Of a DNA stretch of 64,000 nucleotides, positions 32,963-60,388 are shown one piece after another. The stretch lies in the NCBI RefSeq assembly GCF_057098645.1, contig NZ_CM169472.1. One strand, given 5' to 3'. The notes under the pieces were generated by a model that saw only the letters and a list, made by a program, of their open reading frames with translations, made no database searches and was not told where the DNA came from. The position numbers were made by a program, and so were the translations under genes. The number at the start of each line of letters is the position of its first letter. Within the stretch, counting starts at the first letter, position 1.

Positions 32963-33127
32963 GCCTTATCTCCACCTCTTCGCGTCATTACGCGATATTC
33001 ATTAAAGTGGCGAAAGCATGACAGCAATCACAAAAAAATGAAAATAACAAAAAGAGAAAACACTTTTGCCATTTTGCTAACAAACAGGAAGGAGATGCGA
33101 GGGAGAACGCGCTCCCTCGAGAGGAAA

Positions 33128-33217
33128 TCAGTGCAGCGCGGCAGTCAAACCCACGGCTACGATCAAACCGAGGACGATAATCGTTGTTACCAGTGAAAAT
33201 TTAAGGTCGGTGCTCAT
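33128..33217 (-). CDS. ynhF: Small membrane protein YnhF (29 aa)
   Basis: Hand translation of the minus strand gives MSTDLKFSLVTTIIVLGLIVAVGLTAALH*; below the ORF-track cutoff. Confidence 0.75.
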   Translation of the reverse strand: MSTDLKFSLVTTIIVLGLIVAVGLTAALH

Positions 33218-33515
33218 CAAGTTTTCTCCTTTTTTATTACCACACAAAAAGTGATATTACGCATTTTTACACACTGTGATGAAAAAATCTCCCGTCATTT
33301 ATAATGATAAGTGTTTTTACCACTTCCCCTTTTCGTCAAGATCGGCCAAAATTCCACGCTTACACTATTTGCGTACTGGCCATTGACCCCTTCCTGACGC
33401 TCCGTGTCGTTTTTCCGGCGTACCGCAACACTTTTGTTGTGCGTAAGGTGTGTAAAGGCAAACGTTTACCTTGCGATTTTGCAGGAGCTGAAGTTAGGGT
33501 CTGGAGTGAAATGGA

Positions 33516-40545: not shown

Positions 40546-41799
40546 CGCAGGCTGGAGCGTTGCGCCAATCCCGTCTTCGTCTGGCTGTAGTTTCAGTGCG
40601 TTACACAGAGTTTGCCGACTGGCATCTGTTATCTCAACGCGTATATCCCCGGTAACTTCCCCTTTCACATTGATGAAGTCAGGTGAAATTTCTTTCGCAC
40701 TGGTTTGCAGGCAAATCGCTCCCTCTCCGCGCAGGCGTTTCACTTTCAGTTGCACATGCGTTGCCGCACCAGTGATCAGCCACAGTTTTCCGCCATTCAG
40801 ATTGATGTTACCAACAATGAAAGTGACACTGTCACCTTTTACCGTACTGCCGTCGAGAATCAACACACCGCCCTGCTGTACAGTAATCGTTGATTGTTGC
40901 AGATCTGCGTCATAGCCAATAATCATTGAAGCGCCGTCCAGTAATGCAACACTCCCGGTCAGTTCAACCGGTGCGCGATCTTCCTCTACGACAAAATTTT
41001 CGTCCGCGCTGGTGGGTGACAACAGGATCACTGTTCCACCTTGTATTACCGCATTTTCCAGCGTACCGGCATGCACTTCAGCCCGACCACCCACATTCAC
41101 GGACAGGTTTTGCGTCTTACCGGAACTGTAGAGCTGAAGGCCATCCGTCCCCAGACGATAAATGGATCCATTCTCAACAATAGTGTCAGAGTCTTCACCA
41201 CCGAGATTATTCATGGTGCCACCAGCAAGCAACGTATCACTGGCTTTCCCGGCCAGCATAAAAACGCCGCCCTGATTAATCTCACAATTGCTGGCTTCCC
41301 CACCTGGATACACCAACAATTCACCACCTTCATCTACCACGACCGCTGAGGTTGTCCCATTAACCAACAGGCCGCCCTCTTGATCGAGAATGATTTTTTC
41401 CGCGCGATGTCCTTCCAGTACACGCAGGTTACCGCCATTTTCCAGCAACAAACCGCAGGCATAACCCTGATCAACGCTGAATTCACCTTCGGGATGGCGG
41501 CCATTAACCGTAGCGAGCGTAGAGAGACTAATTGCGCCTCCCTCGGACTGAACAATATCTGTGGCAATGGCACCGTCGCTGACCGATAGCGTGCCATTGT
41601 TACCGTACTGTGTGCATTTGGCGATCCCACCGGTTGCCACTTTCAACCAGCCAGCCCCCGTGACCACGGTATTTTCGGCTCTTCCGCCAGCTTCAACAAT
41701 CAACTCGCCTTCAGTAAGTTGCGTCGCGCCAATGACCTCGCCGATCTTAACAATTTGCACATTCCCGTCGCTCATCAAGTTTTTCGCATCAGACCCCAT
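40543..41799 (-). CDS. ydhQ: Autotransporter-passenger-like beta-helical protein YdhQ
   Basis: 418 aa, Gly/Asn/Thr-rich repetitive beta-strand composition; no obvious C-terminal beta-barrel. Confidence 0.85.
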   Translation of the reverse strand: MGSDAKNLMSDGNVQIVKIGEVIGATQLTEGELIVEAGGRAENTVVTGAGWLKVATGGIAKCTQYGNNGTLSVSDGAIATDIVQSEGGAISLSTLATVNGRHPEGEFSVDQGYACGLLLENGGNLRVLEGHRAEKIILDQEGGLLVNGTTSAVVVDEGGELLVYPGGEASNCEINQGGVFMLAGKASDTLLAGGTMNNLGGEDSDTIVENGSIYRLGTDGLQLYSSGKTQNLSVNVGGRAEVHAGTLENAVIQGGTVILLSPTSADENFVVEEDRAPVELTGSVALLDGASMIIGYDADLQQSTITVQQGGVLILDGSTVKGDSVTFIVGNINLNGGKLWLITGAATHVQLKVKRLRGEGAICLQTSAKEISPDFINVKGEVTGDIRVEITDASRQTLCNALKLQPDEDGIGATLQPA

Positions 41800-42106
41800 G
41801 ATTTATTCCTTTGCTGCATCTGTGTGCCTTTATTGCTACCTAAGTGTAAAGGCTACGGAGGATTTATCCACGACAGATTTGAGATGGTGGCAAACAACTC
41901 TGTTTAAACTCTGATACACGAATTATTGGGTTGTATCAGATGTAAATGCGATCCTGAATAAAAATCGCCCTTGCAAATCAACAAAATATAGCCAATTTGC
42001 TTAAAAGCTCTGCAAATGGTCGAAATAGCGCAGAAAATTACGTTTTGCCTCTTGCCACCTTCCCACTCTGCCGCTAATATTCGTCCCCGTTGTCACCTAC
42101 AACGTT

Positions 42107-42183
42107 GCGTTCATAGCTCAGTTGGTTAGAGCACCACCTTGACATGGTGGGGGTCGTTGGTTCGAGTCCAATTGAACGCACCA
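42107..42183 (+). tRNA. valV: tRNA-Val (anticodon GAC)
   Basis: 77-nt cloverleaf including CCA; anticodon loop cttGACat. Confidence 0.93.
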
Positions 42184-42187
42184 TCCT

Positions 42188-42264
42188 GCGTCCGTAGCTC
42201 AGTTGGTTAGAGCACCACCTTGACATGGTGGGGGTCGGTGGTTCGAGTCCACTCGGACGCACCA
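42188..42264 (+). tRNA. valW: tRNA-Val (anticodon GAC), second copy
   Basis: 77 nt, 4-nt spacer after valV; differs from valV by compensatory changes in acceptor and T stems. Confidence 0.93.
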
Positions 42265-42371
42265 GATTTTCTTAATCTGGTCTTCTACTTTTTCCCTCTG
42301 CTTCTTCTCTGTATCCAATACGTTAAAAGATTTACACTGTCTTCGTATGCGTTATCAGAAGGAGAATCGCT

Positions 42372-42677
42372 ATGGCAACTTTGTTACAACTTCATTTTTC
42401 TTTCAATGGCCCATTTGGCGACGCAATGGCTGAGCAGCTTAAACCGCTTGCTGAGTCGATTAATCAGGAACCTGGTTTTCTGTGGAAGGTATGGACCGAA
42501 AGTGAAAAGAACCACGAAGCCGGTGGGATCTACCTTTTCACTGATGAAAAAAGCGCCCTTGCCTATCTGGAAAAACACACTGCCCGACTGAAAAATCTCG
42601 GCGTTGAGGAAGTTATCGCCAAAGTTTTCGATGTCAATGAGCCACTGAGTCAAATCAATCAGGCAAAACTCGCCTGA
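42372..42677 (+). CDS. ydhR: Putative monooxygenase-like small protein YdhR
   Basis: 101-aa ORF following valVW; hairpin plus T-run after its stop (42684..42705). Confidence 0.85.
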
Positions 42678-42802
42678 CAGATTTTAATCAAGGGCGGTTA
42701 GCGCCCTTTTCATCCCTGTCTGAAATTTCTCAAATTCTAAAAATTTCAACCAAACTTATCTGATAACACTAAATTCGAAAGAATGCGTACAGGTAAGTAA
42801 CA

Positions 42803-44407
42803 ATGAAAAAAATTGCTATTGTGGGTGCCGGGCCTACGGGGATCTACACCTTATCCTCGCTTCTACAGCAACAAACTCCACTTTCTATTTCTATCTTCGA
42901 GCAGGCTGACGAGGCCGGTGTCGGGATGCCATACAGTGATGAGGAAAACTCAAAAATGATGCTGGCAAATATTGCCAGTATTGAAATACCGCCGATTTAT
43001 TGTACGTATCTCGAATGGCTACAAAAGCAAGAAGCCAGCCATCTCCAGCGTTATGGCGTTAAAAAAGAAACCTTGCACGATCGTCAGTTTTTACCGCGAA
43101 TTCTGCTGGGCGAATATTTCCGCGATCAATTTTTACGATTAGTAGACCAGGCACGAAAGCAAAAATTTGCAGTGGCTGTTTATGAATCATGCCAGGTTAC
43201 CGATCTGCAAATTACAAATGCTGGCGTCATGCTCGCTACAAATCAGGATTTACCCAGCGAGACGTTTGATTTAGCGGTGATTGCCACGGGTCACGTCTGG
43301 CCTGATGAAGAAGAAGCAATCCGAACGTATTTTCCCAGCCCGTGGTCAGGCCTGATGGAAGCAAAGGTCGATGCGTGTAACATGGGTATTATGGGAACAT
43401 CCTTGAGCGGACTGGATGCGGCAATGGCAGTGGCAATTCAGCATGGTTCGTTCATTGAAGATGATAAACAACACGTCGTTTTTCACCGCGATAACGCAAG
43501 TGAAAAGCTAAATATTACGTTAATGTCGCGCACGGGTATTTTACCCGAAGCCGATTTCTATTGCCCTATTCCCTACGAGCCCTTACACATCGTCACTGAT
43601 CAGGCATTAAATGCTGAGATTCAAAAAGGCGAATATGGCCTTTTGGATCGGGTATTTAGATTGATAGTAGAGGAAATCAAGTTTGCTGATCCAGACTGGA
43701 GCCAACGCATAGCCTTAGAGAGCCTGAATGTCGATTCCTTTGCTCAAGCCTGGTTTGCCGAGCGCAAACAACGCGACCCATTTGACTGGGCAGAAAAAAA
43801 TCTCCAGGAAGTCGAACGCAATAAACGAGAAAAACATACTGTTCCCTGGCGTTATGTCATTCTGCGCCTGCATGAAGCAGTACAGGAAATTGTTCCACAT
43901 CTGAATGAACACGACCATAAACGGTTCAGTAAAGGCCTTGCCCGGGTTTTCATCGATAATTATGCCGCAATCCCTTCAGAGTCTATTCGTCGGCTGCTGG
44001 CCTTACGTGAAGCGGGAATCATTCATATTCTCGCTCTCAGTGAAGACTACAAAATGGAAATTAACGAGTCGCGCACCGTCCTGAAAACGGAAGACAACAG
44101 CTACTCGTTTGACGTTTTTATTGATGCCCGCGGGCAGCGTCCGCTTAAAGTGAAAGATATTCCTTTCCCTGGACTACGCGAACAATTACAGAAAACAGGG
44201 GATGAAATCCCTGATGTTGGTGAAGATTATACGTTACAGCAACCCGAAGATATTCGTGGGCGCGTAGCGTTCGGCGCGTTGCCCTGGTTAATGCACGACC
44301 AGCCTTTCGTTCAGGGACTTACGGCATGTGCAGAAATTGGTGAGGCGATGGCTCGGGCGGTCGTAAAACCTGCATCCCTTGCTCGTCGGCGTCTTTCGTT
44401 TGATTAA
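42803..44407 (+). CDS. ydhS: FAD/NAD(P)-binding protein YdhS
   Basis: N-terminal Rossmann motif IAIVGAGPTG; 534 aa. Confidence 0.85.
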   Translation: MKKIAIVGAGPTGIYTLSSLLQQQTPLSISIFEQADEAGVGMPYSDEENSKMMLANIASIEIPPIYCTYLEWLQKQEASHLQRYGVKKETLHDRQFLPRILLGEYFRDQFLRLVDQARKQKFAVAVYESCQVTDLQITNAGVMLATNQDLPSETFDLAVIATGHVWPDEEEAIRTYFPSPWSGLMEAKVDACNMGIMGTSLSGLDAAMAVAIQHGSFIEDDKQHVVFHRDNASEKLNITLMSRTGILPEADFYCPIPYEPLHIVTDQALNAEIQKGEYGLLDRVFRLIVEEIKFADPDWSQRIALESLNVDSFAQAWFAERKQRDPFDWAEKNLQEVERNKREKHTVPWRYVILRLHEAVQEIVPHLNEHDHKRFSKGLARVFIDNYAAIPSESIRRLLALREAGIIHILALSEDYKMEINESRTVLKTEDNSYSFDVFIDARGQRPLKVKDIPFPGLREQLQKTGDEIPDVGEDYTLQQPEDIRGRVAFGALPWLMHDQPFVQGLTACAEIGEAMARAVVKPASLARRRLSFD

Positions 44408-44418
44408 AGGTAAAGCTA

Positions 44419-45231
44419 TCAGCACTCAACAAACTGATGCTGTTCATTAAGACGATAGCGGACTCCGGCTCGAATATTGTTTTCACCTTCAATGGCGACG
44501 GCGAAACGAACTCTTTCGCCGTCATGATATGCCAGTGCGGCGCTTCCTCCTGGCCCGAGAATAATTGAGTCGACCACGCCCGTGCTCACTACCGTTGAAT
44601 TTTCACCGCTGGCAATGATGTGTACATTGTCGCCGCTGTTGGCAATTCTGGCGTTTGCGCCAAAGCTGGCGATTTGCACCAGGTCACCATTACTAGCGAC
44701 ATGACATCGTTCACCCAATGTACAAACGCGTACTCGCATTCCGGTATTCGCAATCCGACTGCTATCTCCAGCGCTGCTTATCCGCGAAGAATTGCCGGTT
44801 ACAGCAACCCGTGCGCGCTCACCGGAGCTGCCAATGTGACTGTTAAAGCCGACACTTCCAATCCGCACGCTATAACCCATACTGGCAATTTGTGCAGCAT
44901 ACCCAGCGGTTGCGATTCTGGCGTTATCCTCACAACAGCCGATGCGAGCATGATCGTCGCTGCGGGCAAACTGACTGCAAAATGGTATCTCTCCGGGGTC
45001 TGTGGCCAGTTTTTGCATAGAGGAAACTTCCTGATGCGCGAAGTTTTCATCCGCCAGCCATTTTTTCCACGCATACTCAACCAGACTCTCCGCCCAGTCC
45101 GTATATCCTTCCTCAATCAGTGCATGATGAATATCGGCATAACTACCGCCGCGTGGGAAATGGCGCAGGAACCAGCGATACATCACCGCTCCGATACGCC
45201 ATTCTCGCAGGTCTGCTCGTGTAATGATCAT
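44419..45231 (-). CDS. ydhT: YdhT, uncharacterised protein with a 9-residue periodic repeat
   Basis: 270 aa; about 15 consecutive xxRIxxxGx nonamer units; first gene read into the ydhUXWV block. Confidence 0.82.
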   Translation of the reverse strand: MIITRADLREWRIGAVMYRWFLRHFPRGGSYADIHHALIEEGYTDWAESLVEYAWKKWLADENFAHQEVSSMQKLATDPGEIPFCSQFARSDDHARIGCCEDNARIATAGYAAQIASMGYSVRIGSVGFNSHIGSSGERARVAVTGNSSRISSAGDSSRIANTGMRVRVCTLGERCHVASNGDLVQIASFGANARIANSGDNVHIIASGENSTVVSTGVVDSIILGPGGSAALAYHDGERVRFAVAIEGENNIRAGVRYRLNEQHQFVEC

Positions 45232-45234
45232 TCG

Positions 45235-46020
45235 TTAGTGCCGGTGATAGCCATCGACCATGCTTTTAAAGGTTTCGTGTGGCGTACGCCCCGTGGTGCA
45301 AAGATAAAGATGACCGAAGATAAAAAAGAGGCTTATAAATGCCAGAGCAAAATGCGCCTGCAATAACCAGTATCTTACGCCAGGAAACACATCTCCCACG
45401 GCTTGCGGATAGAGACACAGCAGCCCCGTCAATAGTAACAACGGCAGCAATCCATACATGACACCAACATAGGCAACCTGCTGTAAGGGATTAAATTTAG
45501 ACTGGGTTGTTGCCGGGAAAGGATGTTCTTCCCCCTGCATAATGCCAAACAAATAAAATCGCGTTTGTTTTGCCGCCCGCTCCAGCCAACCCTGACGACG
45601 AATGCGATAGTGGTGGCCATTACCCCCAACGGCATTGATCAGAACAAAGCCAAGCCAGCATGCCAGTAACAAAAATCCGCAAACTTCATGCACCGCAACC
45701 AGACTTTTAACCGCAGTTGCGCCCACCAGCGCAAAGTGATTTATCAGCCCACTTGCCAGCAACAATACAAAGAGTAACGCATTCGACCAGTGCCATAATC
45801 TGACCGCTTTGCTGTAAAGATAAATCCTCTCACCATGATCGGTGGCTGATTTCTTCACGCCACGAGCACGAAGCAAGGCGTGCTGCCCCAGCACCAACCA
45901 CATCCCAACCAGCAATACTCCGGCAATGATCAACCACACCGGCCAAAATTCGGGAGTGAACTGTGGCACATAGTTCGCTAACTGGCTCTGAAACTGTTCA
46001 GCATGTTGCGACGGGTTCAT
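45235..46020 (-). CDS. ydhU: Membrane cytochrome b-type subunit YdhU (PhsC/FdnI-like)
   Basis: 261 aa, polytopic with conserved His; overlaps ydhX by 4 nt. Confidence 0.85.
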   Translation of the reverse strand: MNPSQHAEQFQSQLANYVPQFTPEFWPVWLIIAGVLLVGMWLVLGQHALLRARGVKKSATDHGERIYLYSKAVRLWHWSNALLFVLLLASGLINHFALVGATAVKSLVAVHEVCGFLLLACWLGFVLINAVGGNGHHYRIRRQGWLERAAKQTRFYLFGIMQGEEHPFPATTQSKFNPLQQVAYVGVMYGLLPLLLLTGLLCLYPQAVGDVFPGVRYWLLQAHFALAFISLFFIFGHLYLCTTGRTPHETFKSMVDGYHRH

Positions 46021-46685
46021 ACATTTTCCTTTTTAATCAAATGTTGACCGAACCGGCGATACAGATGCGGTTTCCCGGCACCAGGTAGCTGATATTGATA
46101 GTATTTATTATCCTGCAACCACGCCTGAATTTCTGGGCTATCTTCGCGACCAAAGATCAATGCGTGTTCCGGGCAGGCGCTGACGCAAATGGGCGGAAAG
46201 CCTTTTGCCAGTCGGGACTCAGCGCAGAAATCACATTTATCTGCCACTTTAGTGACAGGGTTAAGGTAGCGAACCTGGTACGGACAAGCGCCAATGCAAT
46301 AACTGCAGCCGATGTACTGCGATTTTTCTACCCGCACGATCCCCTGCTCATCACGCCACGACGCCCCTGTCGGGCATACGTCGATGCACGGAGCATCTTC
46401 GCAGTGCTGACATGACTGGCGAAAAAAGTGATACTGCGTTTCGTTGTCGTTATCGGTGACTGGAATGTGTGCTATCGATAAACGGCTTCCCTGAGCGGGG
46501 ACGTGATTGGTTTTACGGCATGCGCGGGCGCAAATATTACAGCCATTGCACCGTGACTCGTCATGAATCATGGCATACCGAACTTCCTTTTCTTGCCTCG
46601 TGTTCGCTAACAGAGAAGACGCAGAACCAGTAAAAAAGATTACTGTTCCCATCCCCAGAACAAATTTGCGTCGAGTGAAGGACAT
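46017..46685 (-). CDS. ydhX: 4Fe-4S ferredoxin-like protein YdhX with Tat signal
   Basis: Start at MSFTRRKFVLG (twin-arginine motif); several CxxCxxCxxxCP clusters. Confidence 0.85.
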   Translation of the reverse strand: MSFTRRKFVLGMGTVIFFTGSASSLLANTRQEKEVRYAMIHDESRCNGCNICARACRKTNHVPAQGSRLSIAHIPVTDNDNETQYHFFRQSCQHCEDAPCIDVCPTGASWRDEQGIVRVEKSQYIGCSYCIGACPYQVRYLNPVTKVADKCDFCAESRLAKGFPPICVSACPEHALIFGREDSPEIQAWLQDNKYYQYQLPGAGKPHLYRRFGQHLIKKENV

Positions 46686-46748
46686 CTGATTATCCCCTAA
46701 TGCAGTGGCTGCAACTGTCCACCCTATCCATGACATCTCCCTGAAATT

Positions 46749-47396
46749 TCAGGGGTTCTGAAACTGCTCTACCTCGAACCATTCGCATAAGCCATAAGCC
46801 TTGCCATAGGTCATAAATCGCTCGCTAAACAAGTACAACACCGCCGTCGATGACTCCACCTGCCGTATATCGGCATATTCAGGTGCAACATCCATCGCGG
46901 CGATCGCGGCTTCAATCTGCGCTTCCTGGAAGTAATATGGCGCTTGCATCAGCATGGCGACTTTGTAAGGACGAGGATACGTCTGGCACTCAAAACGAAC
47001 GGCGTGTGCAATGGCGCGACAAATGTCCTGCTCCACAACTTGCAAAGACATCGCCGCGTAGTTTTCACTCATGGCCTGCGTTGAGTAATAGTAATCATCC
47101 TGGCTTCCCGTCATACACGCGATATCCGCGTAGTCTCCGTTCTGCTTGATGTTTTCCAGCAAAACTGACAGTTCCTCTTCTGCAACCGAATAGGGTGGCG
47201 AGAGAAACACGGTGCGCGCCACCAGCTGCCCAGCCGCAGAATGCTGGCGAATGAACTCTGCCAGGATTTCAGCCGGTTCTGGTTCCGTTACCGTATCAAC
47301 GGGGTGACGCATCCCCTGCAACCATTGCCGCTTCGCCTCGTCAACTTCGCTGACTTTCGCTAACGGCAATTCATCCCGATGGTTCATCTTACCCAT
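46749..47396 (-). CDS. ydhW: Uncharacterised protein YdhW
   Basis: 215-aa ORF in conserved position between ydhX and ydhV. Confidence 0.8.
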   Translation of the reverse strand: MGKMNHRDELPLAKVSEVDEAKRQWLQGMRHPVDTVTEPEPAEILAEFIRQHSAAGQLVARTVFLSPPYSVAEEELSVLLENIKQNGDYADIACMTGSQDDYYYSTQAMSENYAAMSLQVVEQDICRAIAHAVRFECQTYPRPYKVAMLMQAPYYFQEAQIEAAIAAMDVAPEYADIRQVESSTAVLYLFSERFMTYGKAYGLCEWFEVEQFQNP

Positions 47397-47399
47397 TCC

Positions 47400-49247
<1,848 letters not shown>

Positions 49248-49287
49248 TTACTGATTTAGTGTATGATGGTGTTTTTGAGGTGCTCCA

Positions 49288-49563
49288 GTGGCTTCTGTTT
49301 CTATCAGCTGTCCCTCCTGTTCAGCTACTGACGGGGTGGTGCGTAACGGCAAAAGCACCGCCGGACATCAGCGCTATCTCTGCTCTCACTGCCGTAAAAC
49401 ATGGCAACTGCAGTTCACTTACACCGCTTCTCAACCCGGTACGCACCAGAAAATCATTGATATGGCCATGAATGGCGTTGGATGCCGGGCAACCGCCCGC
49501 ATTATGGGCGTTGGCCTCAACACGATTTTCCGCCATTTAAAAAACTCAGGCCGCAGTCGGTAA
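49288..49563 (+). CDS. insA: IS1 InsA (transposition repressor / DNA-binding protein)
   Basis: 91-aa [27 protein letters not shown]... matches InsA. Confidence 0.93.
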
Positions 49564-49985
49564 CCTCGCGCATACAGCCGGGCAGTGACGTCATCGTCTG
49601 CGCGGAAATGGACGAACAGTGGGGATACGTCGGGGCTAAATCGCGCCAGCGCTGGCTGTTTTACGCGTATGACAGGCTCCGGAAGACGGTTGTTGCGCAC
49701 GTATTCGGTGAACGCACTATGGCGACGCTGGGGCGTCTTATGAGCCTGCTGTCACCCTTTGACGTGGTGATATGGATGACGGATGGCTGGCCGCTGTATG
49801 AATCCCGCCTGAAGGGAAAGCTGCACGTAATCAGCAAGCGATATACGCAGCGAATTGAGCGGCATAACCTGAATCTGAGGCAGCACCTGGCACGGCTGGG
49901 ACGGAAGTCGCTGTCGTTCTCAAAATCGGTGGAGCTGCATGACAAAGTCATCGGGCATTATCTGAACATAAAACACTATCAATAA
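49482..49985 (+). CDS. insB: IS1 InsB reading frame (expressed as InsAB' transposase by -1 frameshift)
   Basis: 167-aa ORF in the -1 frame overlapping insA; the A-run slippery site lies near 49535-49545. Confidence 0.9.
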
Positions 49986-50387
49986 GTTGGAGTCATTACC
50001 TACGCTGCTGACTCTGTCCCCAACACCAGATATTTTCCCTAACCCGATAGTGTATGAGAAAAGATTTAACGCCGATAAACTAATCCTTTATGGTTAGGAG
50101 AAAAAATAATGTGGTTATTCTGGGCTCTTAACATTGATCATTATCAATTAAAATTACAAAGCAAGAAATTATAAGTGAACTGATATTTATTATCATTTGA
50201 AATAAATTTAACTTAAGCGACAATTATTTGTGACGGTCATTGCAGAAAATAAAAATAATATTATCGCTATAAATTAAAATACATACCGAAATTCGTATAA
50301 TTTCAGCAGTTGTTATTTAGAATGATTAACTGGACCGCAACTGAAGCAAGAATATCAGGATGAAGCTTATCGCCTCATCCTGAATGG

Positions 50388-50597
50388 TCATTTTACCAGT
50401 GCGTTAATGACGGTTTCCATCGCCTGCTTTTCCAGCTCACTGCGCTGAATGCGTTTATTGGCTAATGCTGTACGTAATACGCCTGCGATAACAATATGCT
50501 TTGGTTCCTGCCCCAGATCGCGCATTTCCAGCACAACTTTACCGACAACTCTGCACATTTCTCGGTACAGTTCATCCTCTTTTGTCCGATTTCCCAT
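50388..50597 (-). CDS. fumD: Small protein YdhZ (FumD, fumarase D), 69 aa
   Basis: ORF MGNRTKEDELYREMCRVVGKV... in the position upstream of pykF. Confidence 0.8.
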   Translation of the reverse strand: MGNRTKEDELYREMCRVVGKVVLEMRDLGQEPKHIVIAGVLRTALANKRIQRSELEKQAMETVINALVK

Positions 50598-51153
50598 TCT
50601 TTATACCTATTTATCATGCCAACTATCAGCATATATCAATCTAACCAATTAAACAAAAATCAAACAAAATCAGACAAATAACGCGATAAATTATTTTAAC
50701 TGTAGCAATTGAGCGATGATGTATTTATACACCGGATGAACTTTCACTTATCTTCACAGTGACAACCCCGGCACCAGACGTTGCGCAAACAGCGAAGTTT
50801 TTGCGTAACCTTTTCCCTGGAACGTTAAATCTTTGATAACAATTTATTGTCTAACAAGTTGTATATTTTTTGAAACGCTGTTTTTGTTTTCCTTTTGGAT
50901 TAATTTCAGCGTATAATGCGCACCAATTGACTCTTGAATGGTTTCAGCACTTTGGACTGTAGAACTCAACGACTCAAAAACAGGCACTCACGTTGGGCTG
51001 AGACACAAGCACACATTCCTCTGCACGCTTTTTCGATGTCACCTATCCTTAAAGCGAGGCACCACCACTTTCGTAATACCGGATTCGCTTTCCGGCAGTG
51101 CGCCCAGAAAGCAAGTTTCTCCCATCCTTCTCAACTTAAAGACTAAGACTGTC

Positions 51154-60130: not shown

Positions 60131-60215
60131 AACCCTTAAGTCTGTGCGACACAGGCTTAAGGGTTTCTACCCCATCCGGCGCTTATCTCCGGCACTCTCA
60201 GTGGCTTAGCTCTTG
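60131..60215 (-). ncRNA. rydB: Candidate small RNA RydB (sufA-ydiH intergenic); boundaries approximate
   Basis: Minus-strand hairpin (60140..60176) followed by a U-rich tract; position matches where I recall rydB lying in K-12. Sequence identity not verified. Confidence 0.3.
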
Positions 60216-60388
60216 AAGGGGCGATAAGAATAATCTCATAAAGCTAACCCGCCGTTTTAACACAAACTGCGATTAGTATTATTTTTGAACAATATCAGGC
60301 GGGTAGATAAGCAGTATTAAGAAGGTCATCGAACCTGGACGGAGGTTAATCCAGGTCGATTTGGCGAACTTGCGGCATTAAGTCAGGA

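Follow-up and report, generated by a model that had tools for sequence, protein, structure and literature searches.

The valV-valW operon of Escherichia coli, historically known as tRNAVal2, is a tandem pair of tRNA genes which has been described by Mohanty and Kushner (2007, PMC2190699). Both genes are part of a single transcript with two starts, 18–19 nt upstream of mature valV. The operon has a sigma-70 promoter which matches the consensus at five of six positions in the -35 box and at four of six in the -10 box. The UCCU spacer between the genes has no RNase E site: RNase P cuts the 5' end of each tRNA, thereby separating valV from valW independently of RNase E, and the 3' trailer is taken off by exonucleases. 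The neighboring gene ydhR is not co-transcribed. No recognizable intrinsic terminator was found downstream of valW, and Rho-dependent termination was inferred from this absence of structure (PMC2190699). Later papers have upheld the RNase P dependence: Upon inactivation of this enzyme, mature Val2 falls below about 10–15% (PMC4176162; PMC7049720). The leuQ-leuP-leuV, valU and metT operons are likewise closely spaced, co-transcribed, and separated by RNase P without RNase E (PMC2190699, PMC4176162).

The products are also known. tRNA-Val(GAC) decodes GUU and GUC, and the tRNA-Val(UAC) with cmo5U34 can read all four valine codons (PMC11571807). Val2A and Val2B have been handled as distinct species, with acp3U47 in both (PMC6895100), and were quantified separately in classical abundance data (PMC4535986). 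Valine charging and translational use of the valV and valW tRNAs are taken here from the literature (PMC7049720, PMC4176162). The valine identity set consists of A35, C36, the discriminator A73, and the pairs G3-C70 and U4-A69 in a regular acceptor helix (PMC9976931).

We have analyzed a stretch of 64 kb, which we call the window. valV and valW are its only tRNA genes according to ARAGORN, and the anticodon is gac in both. Each of them is identical to the K-12 gene (string match). A 1-kb query around the pair matches 5425 of the 5426 complete E. coli genomes, with the RefSeq order ydhQ, tRNA-Val, tRNA-Val, ydhR. K-12 BW25113 has ribE, mdtK, ydhQ, the two tRNAs, ydhR, ydhS and ydhT in this order (PGAP). 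The arrangement ydhQ-tRNA-tRNA-ydhR is likewise found in strain C325, which is 99.95% identical to the window over 17.5 kb. The pair is the ydhQ–valV–valW–ydhR locus of E. coli, i.e., the known valV-valW operon. Throughout, we take valW to be Val2A and valV to be Val2B. Table 1 gives the coordinates.

Table 1. The valV-valW operon and other elements of the window (coordinates are those of the window).
Feature	Coordinates	Strand	Basis	Description
STnc550	33125-33515	-	Rfam, 396.5 bits	enterobacterial sRNA family
sigma-70 promoter of the valV-valW operon	42052..42080	+	consensus scan	-35 TTGCCA, 17-nt spacer, -10 TAATAT
5' leader of the primary transcript	42087..42106	+	primer-extension starts of PMC2190699	about 18-20 nt, removed by RNase P
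valV, tRNA-Val(GAC)	42107..42183	+	ARAGORN and Rfam tRNA model	acceptor stem GCGUUCA/UGAACGC, T stem U50-A64
valV-valW intergenic spacer	42184..42187	+	sequence	TCCT (UCCU in RNA), 4 nt
valW, tRNA-Val(GAC)	42188..42264	+	ARAGORN and Rfam tRNA model	acceptor stem GCGUCCG/CGGACGC, T stem G50-C64
3'-trailer hairpin	42261..42281	+	terminator-like scan and fold energy	ACCAGAUU-UUCUU-AAUCUGGU; 5' arm begins with the ACCA end of valW
IS1 element	49234-50000			replaces 984 bp of C325; element end reads GGTGATGCTGCCAACTTACTGATTTAGTG
167-aa ORF, InsB-sized	49482-49985			within IS1
rydB	60162-60222	-	Rfam, 81.6 bits	enterobacterial sRNA family

Other elements of the window are only briefly considered. 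The STnc550 and rydB matches are consistent with an E. coli origin. The 984 bp replaced by IS1 correspond to the 5' end of ydhV and most of ydhY, so ydhV is truncated, with an ORF of 606 aa instead of 700 aa. An insertion of IS1 together with a deletion next to it would account for this state. Rfam also reports a match to HPnc0260, a family labelled bacterial antisense RNA (42226-42388, minus strand, 108.7 bits), on the strand opposite the 3' half of valW and the leader of ydhR. Its score collapses to 41.9 bits without the tRNA part, when the gathering score is 59. What is recognized here is therefore mostly a tRNA T arm and acceptor end in reverse complement, and we do not count the match as evidence of an antisense RNA.

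A previous reading based on the sequence alone had proposed two intact tandem tRNA-Val(GAC) genes 4 nt apart, which is what we find. ARAGORN calls both genes, and they score 70.1 bits (valV) and 69.6 bits (valW) with the RF00005 model (Infernal, Rfam), whose gathering score is 29. Each gene has 77 nt with a genome-encoded CCA, and folds as a cloverleaf with stems of 7, 4, 5 and 5 bp, in which all 21 stem pairs are standard. Neither of them looks like a pseudogene. By inspection, the complete valine identity set (A35, C36, A73, G3-C70, U4-A69) is present in both. The minor valine determinant G20 is absent from both, the D loop being AGUUGGUUA. The same reading had called the two tRNAs isoacceptors; as they share the anticodon, they are strictly isodecoders.

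The promoter found by our scan and the UCCU spacer agree with the published description and start sites. We have placed these starts by counting back from 42107, with an off-by-one uncertainty (there are C residues at -19 and -20). A G+C-rich stretch, TCGTCCCC, comes after the -10 box, and the promoter sequence is unchanged in strains SCU-116 and Q65. From the literature, valV and valW would be co-transcribed from this single sigma-70 promoter, starting about 18–20 nt upstream of valV. As the spacer is just UCCU, RNase P cleavage at each tRNA 5' end should be enough to separate them, and 3' exonucleases would then trim both tRNAs back to the encoded CCA. Termination would be Rho-dependent, according to the published judgement.

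This last step is less certain: Rho dependence was deduced from a lack of structure, yet a modest hairpin is present in the 3' trailer. It has an 8-bp stem with three G-C pairs, an energy of -9.4 kcal/mol and a z-score of -5.7. The U-rich tract on its 3' side is interrupted and displaced, and the scan for terminator-like sites gives one site when 0.8 are expected by chance. Stronger equivalents (-14 to -19 kcal/mol), in which GCACCA of the tRNA pairs with a downstream UGGUGC, are found in 24 of the 45 listed valV..valW loci from other genera, compared to 2.5% of shuffled trailers. They are present in Citrobacter, Enterobacter, Klebsiella, Kluyvera and relatives. Two inner pairs of this hairpin show compensatory changes, in an alignment which was preselected for the hairpin and in which the two Escherichia sequences are misplaced. 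The published absence of structure downstream of valW deserves a second look, although this is a minor point.

A position-by-position comparison of valV and valW gives six differences, at positions 5, 7, 51, 65, 67 and 69 of the 77-nt genes. They form exactly three base pairs. From valV to valW, pair 5-69 (canonical 5-68) changes from U-A to C-G, pair 7-67 (canonical 7-66) from A-U to G-C, and pair 51-65 (canonical 50-64) from U-A to G-C; the canonical numbers are shifted because of an extra nucleotide in the D loop. Both partners have changed in all three cases, with Watson-Crick pairs in valV as in valW. Everywhere else the genes are identical: No difference is found in the D arm, the anticodon arm, the variable loop, the T loop, A73 or CCA. 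The chance that six random positions form three complete pairs is about 5.6e-6, and about 2e-7 if pairing must also be restored. Compensatory changes in the acceptor stem (tca...tga versus ccg...cgg) and in the T stem had been proposed from the sequence, and they account for all the differences. valW has three more G-C pairs than valV, and the imposed cloverleaf is 5 kcal/mol more stable (-31.3 compared to -26.2).

We have scanned one genome per species for two Val(GAC) anticodon arms 55–85 nt apart, and extracted the genes with ARAGORN. At least 120 loci were obtained. As an identical anticodon arm is required in two neighboring copies, the scan samples tandem arrays only. Exact valV followed by exact valW (77/77 each) is found in at least 45 loci, from at least 18 named genera of Enterobacteriaceae, including Citrobacter, Enterobacter, Klebsiella, Raoultella, Kosakonia, Cedecea, Mangrovibacter, Shimwellia and Siccibacter. 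Among the loci listed there are at least 56 identical copies of valV in other genera, and at least 99 of valW across Enterobacterales. The surroundings are much less conserved: In the listed valV-valW loci of other genera the spacer ranges from 2 to 18 nt, and the median identity to E. coli is 80% for the 80 nt upstream and 56% for the 80 nt downstream. The permanence of both exact sequences next to diverged spacers and downstream flanks shows that each gene is under strong purifying selection, and the split between them predates the family Enterobacteriaceae.

The two types do not have the same distribution among the loci listed. The valV type stays within Enterobacteriaceae, and the valW type extends to Serratia, Erwinia, Pantoea, Tatumella, Budvicia and others. 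In Erwiniaceae the partners of valW are variants with other acceptor stems, where compensation is also complete. Serratia, Edwardsiella, Rosenbergiella, one Cedecea species and one Lelliottia species have homogeneous arrays, with no gene of the valV type. In the 42 distinct 77-nt Val(GAC) sequences listed, 99.7% of the pair cells are standard, and double changes are found in 13 of the 21 pairs. When partners are slid by one to three columns, pairing drops to 29–50%. The covariation score of these sequences is 0.412, compared to 0.146 in shuffled data, and none of 500 shuffles reaches the observed value.

Some arrays are larger. Klebsiella, Raoultella, Trabulsiella, Pluralibacter and Kluyvera have three-gene arrays, whose middle gene has a GCGUUUA acceptor stem, with one further compensated pair. 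In Cedecea neteri, Enterobacter sp. Cy-643 and Cedecea davisae, valV-valW is followed by 2–4 kb of cargo, a third exact valV, and pykF. One ORF of this cargo has a LysR-like N-terminus, others look metabolic or regulatory, and no integrase is evident. This layout may come from a three-gene array split by insertion. The second gene of the Salmonella locus is another variant, with a GCGUCUG acceptor stem and A50-U64, which is also found, identical, in Enterobacter asburiae and Serratia silvae.

The explanation we favor, with a probability of about 0.95, is that this is the valV-valW operon, with two functional isodecoders whose differences are nearly neutral and whose mis-paired hybrids are selected out. 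In the simplest reading, the compensated states are nearly equivalent, and the path between them goes through mis-paired intermediates. The differences would persist because any partial exchange between the copies yields a tRNA with mismatched stems, and such hybrids would be removed by selection. We infer that a need for two different tRNAs is not required to explain the pattern.

Apparent exchanges between the copies can be seen in rare genomes. The canonical valV-valW junction is kept in 5406 of the 5425 E. coli genomes, and roughly 19–24 genomes are atypical. Junction queries (valW-valW and valV-valV) were run with BLAST, which joins pieces across copies, so the identity bands are approximate; the individual variants were then read directly, from assemblies as deposited. 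One of them is Q65, with a single gene made of a valV 5' part and a valW 3' part, which has a U5·G68 wobble and an A7·C66 mismatch. An unequal crossover in the core shared by both genes seems to have deleted the rest. Strain 2013C-3492 looks like the duplication counterpart: Between valV and valW it has a hybrid (valW 5', valV 3') with two mismatches and one wobble. Other variants are SCU-116, which has valV-valW-valW with an additional intact valW; CFE299, with valV-valW, 104 nt and another valW, a complex duplication; and CEC96047, where an IS3-family element precedes valW and valV is reduced to its last 5 nt, just before valW. Single changes are found in ST131 isolates, including isolate 86 (a G50·A64 mismatch in valV), and in 14EC047 (a U5·G68 wobble in valW). 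Given these rare hybrids and copy-number variants, unequal crossover and micro-conversion seem to take place. Their products remain uncommon, which fits selection against hybrids.

The main alternative is that valV and valW are functionally specialized, so that the difference itself is selected, for example through stability, modification, processing kinetics, sensitivity to stress nucleases or a non-translational role. We consider it improbable, with roughly one chance in ten, but several facts speak for it. At least 18 genera keep both exact sequences in the same order, next to diverging flanks, and the 77/77 conservation of both variants exceeds what simple neutrality predicts. The three extra G-C pairs of valW and its more stable cloverleaf could matter, and both species are reported as distinct in cells (PMC6895100, PMC4535986). 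On the other hand, the three variable pairs fall outside the listed ValRS determinants (PMC9976931). In the tables of Schrader and Uhlenbeck, U-A, G-C and A-U at 50-64 each have an average ddG of 0.0 for EF-Tu (PMC3239215). The pairs to which EF-Tu is sensitive, G49-U65 and U51-A63 (PMC3239215), are the same in valV and valW, and they are conserved in 40 of the 42 listed Val(GAC) sequences. We have thus rejected EF-Tu tuning as a basis for specialization, since both U-A and G-C are neutral at 50-64.

The distribution of the two types also argues against specialization. Serratia, Edwardsiella, Rosenbergiella, one Cedecea species and one Lelliottia species manage with arrays of the valW type or derivatives only, Salmonella has swapped the valW type for another variant, and Erwiniaceae combine valW with other acceptor stems. 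Within E. coli there are strains with valV-valW-valW, or with an IS3 element replacing valV ahead of valW. The sequence-only reading had described the two genes as variants maintained by selection. This is supported as far as each sequence is concerned, by the conserved loci with diverged surroundings. As for selection on the difference, it is not demonstrated, given the ValRS determinants avoided by the changes, the EF-Tu-neutral 50-64 pair, and the homogeneous arrays found elsewhere. The conserved order might still reflect a division of labor between valV and valW (thermal stability, stress turnover or co-transcriptional processing), a tentative idea to which we give little weight. Such a division could tie in with the conserved 3'-trailer hairpin, in which the CCA of the last gene is sequestered. 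Otherwise, compensatory epistasis would simply have trapped the two sequences.

A different question is whether the pair is a target for integration or recombination, as had also been suggested from the sequence. In its strongest form, the proposal would be that E. coli has an active attB in this pair, and that the ydhR-fumD block is an island which entered by site-specific recombination at valW. The neighborhood gives some reasons to consider it. According to a tblastn search with the E. coli neighbors, the loci listed share the backbone cfa-ribE-mdtK-[Val(GAC) array]-pykF-ldtE-sufE. pykF lies directly downstream of the array in most Enterobacterales: Serratia, Pantoea, Erwinia, Mangrovibacter, Cedecea, Budvicia and others, among the loci listed. 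In Escherichia, ydhQ is inserted upstream and about 8.9 kb (ydhR to fumD) downstream; Citrobacter and Enterobacter have other content. SPI-2 lies alongside tRNA-valV in Salmonella, and a T6SS island, SPI-22, is found at the same site in S. bongori (PMC3158058). In S. enterica arizonae, the tRNA pair is followed, at a distance of 181 nt, by the end of the T3SS genes sctR, S, T and U. The cargo between array copies in Cedecea and Enterobacter sp. Cy-643 points in the same direction.

In spite of this, we find an active attB in E. coli very unlikely. The 1-kb segment is uninterrupted in 5401 of the 5425 genomes, so the locus is essentially fixed. The 25-nt 3' end of valW, with up to three mismatches, has no copy in the 64-kb window beyond valV and valW themselves, and no flanking direct repeats were found around ydhQ-pykF. 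No integrase or recombinase is annotated between mdtK and pykF, either in K-12 or in C325. The ydhR-ydhV block shows no composition anomaly, its G+C content being 0.45–0.53, like that of the flanks. A single low value (0.37) is found at 50000-50999, in the fumD-pykF stretch beside IS1.

Phage genomes tell the same story. A blastn search in distant mode with positions 42100-42300 found no attP-like fragment of valV or valW in 50,697 phage records; the matches are otherwise phage-encoded tRNAs. The only full-length match, "Escherichia phage 503046" (CP025887.1), was rejected as an att site: It is collinear with positions 40889-48548 of the window, i.e., it is host DNA. This mislabelled 23-kb record is collinear over 7.65 kb (ydhQ to ydhV), with a junction inside ydhV, 6 kb away. 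Its second tRNA has 76 nt and follows a 3-nt spacer, probably a sequencing error. MT839008 was also rejected as attP, as it has an independent tRNA-Val(GAC) with a different acceptor stem. In summary, the suggestion of a target is right for the orthologous site in Salmonella and for the differences in gene content among genera, together with rare recombination between the copies, but not for integration within E. coli.

Finally, we reject the notion that one of the two genes is a duplicate in decay (either a pseudogene or the result of a recent duplication, still to be homogenized), for which the one argument is that the copies differ, and which their high and nearly equal Rfam scores, full pairing in every stem, invariance of each gene across genera, and experimental detection and study of both tRNAs in the literature make extremely improbable.

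The comparative results add nothing that is categorically new. The locus is already known, its two tRNAs have long been treated as distinct species, and their processing has been studied in detail. What is added here is the age of the two variants, the rare mis-paired hybrids, the variable neighborhood, and the EF-Tu-neutral change in the T stem. The pair is a clean example of compensatory evolution in tandem genes, and the hybrids with mismatched stems found in rare E. coli genomes show why gene conversion has left it unhomogenized. The mdtK–tRNA–pykF interval is a hotspot of gene-content change between enterobacterial genera, SPI-2 of Salmonella included.

The comparison with known systems may be summarized as follows. 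The closest one is the K-12 operon (tRNAVal2; PMC2190699), with the same genes, TCCT spacer, promoter, leader, and ydhQ and ydhR as neighbors. No difference is found inside the operon; the strain of the window differs by about 1.5% in the flanks, and has an IS1 element 7 kb downstream. Compared to the leuQ-leuP-leuV, valU and metT operons, valV-valW has the shortest spacer described in PMC2190699. valU has a canonical intrinsic terminator, whereas valV-valW is reported to have none (PMC2190699, PMC4176162). The Salmonella tRNA-valV locus is in the orthologous position, downstream of cfa-ribE-mdtK, and its first gene is an exact valV; it differs in its second gene, described above, in a 10-nt spacer, and in the presence of sctR-U in place of the E. 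coli ydhR. The Val(GAC) arrays of Serratia and Edwardsiella occupy the same mdtK-pykF site, with the valW type or near-identical sequences. They differ from the E. coli pair in having two or three mutually identical copies, with 20-nt spacers and no valV type: These identical copies indicate concerted evolution.
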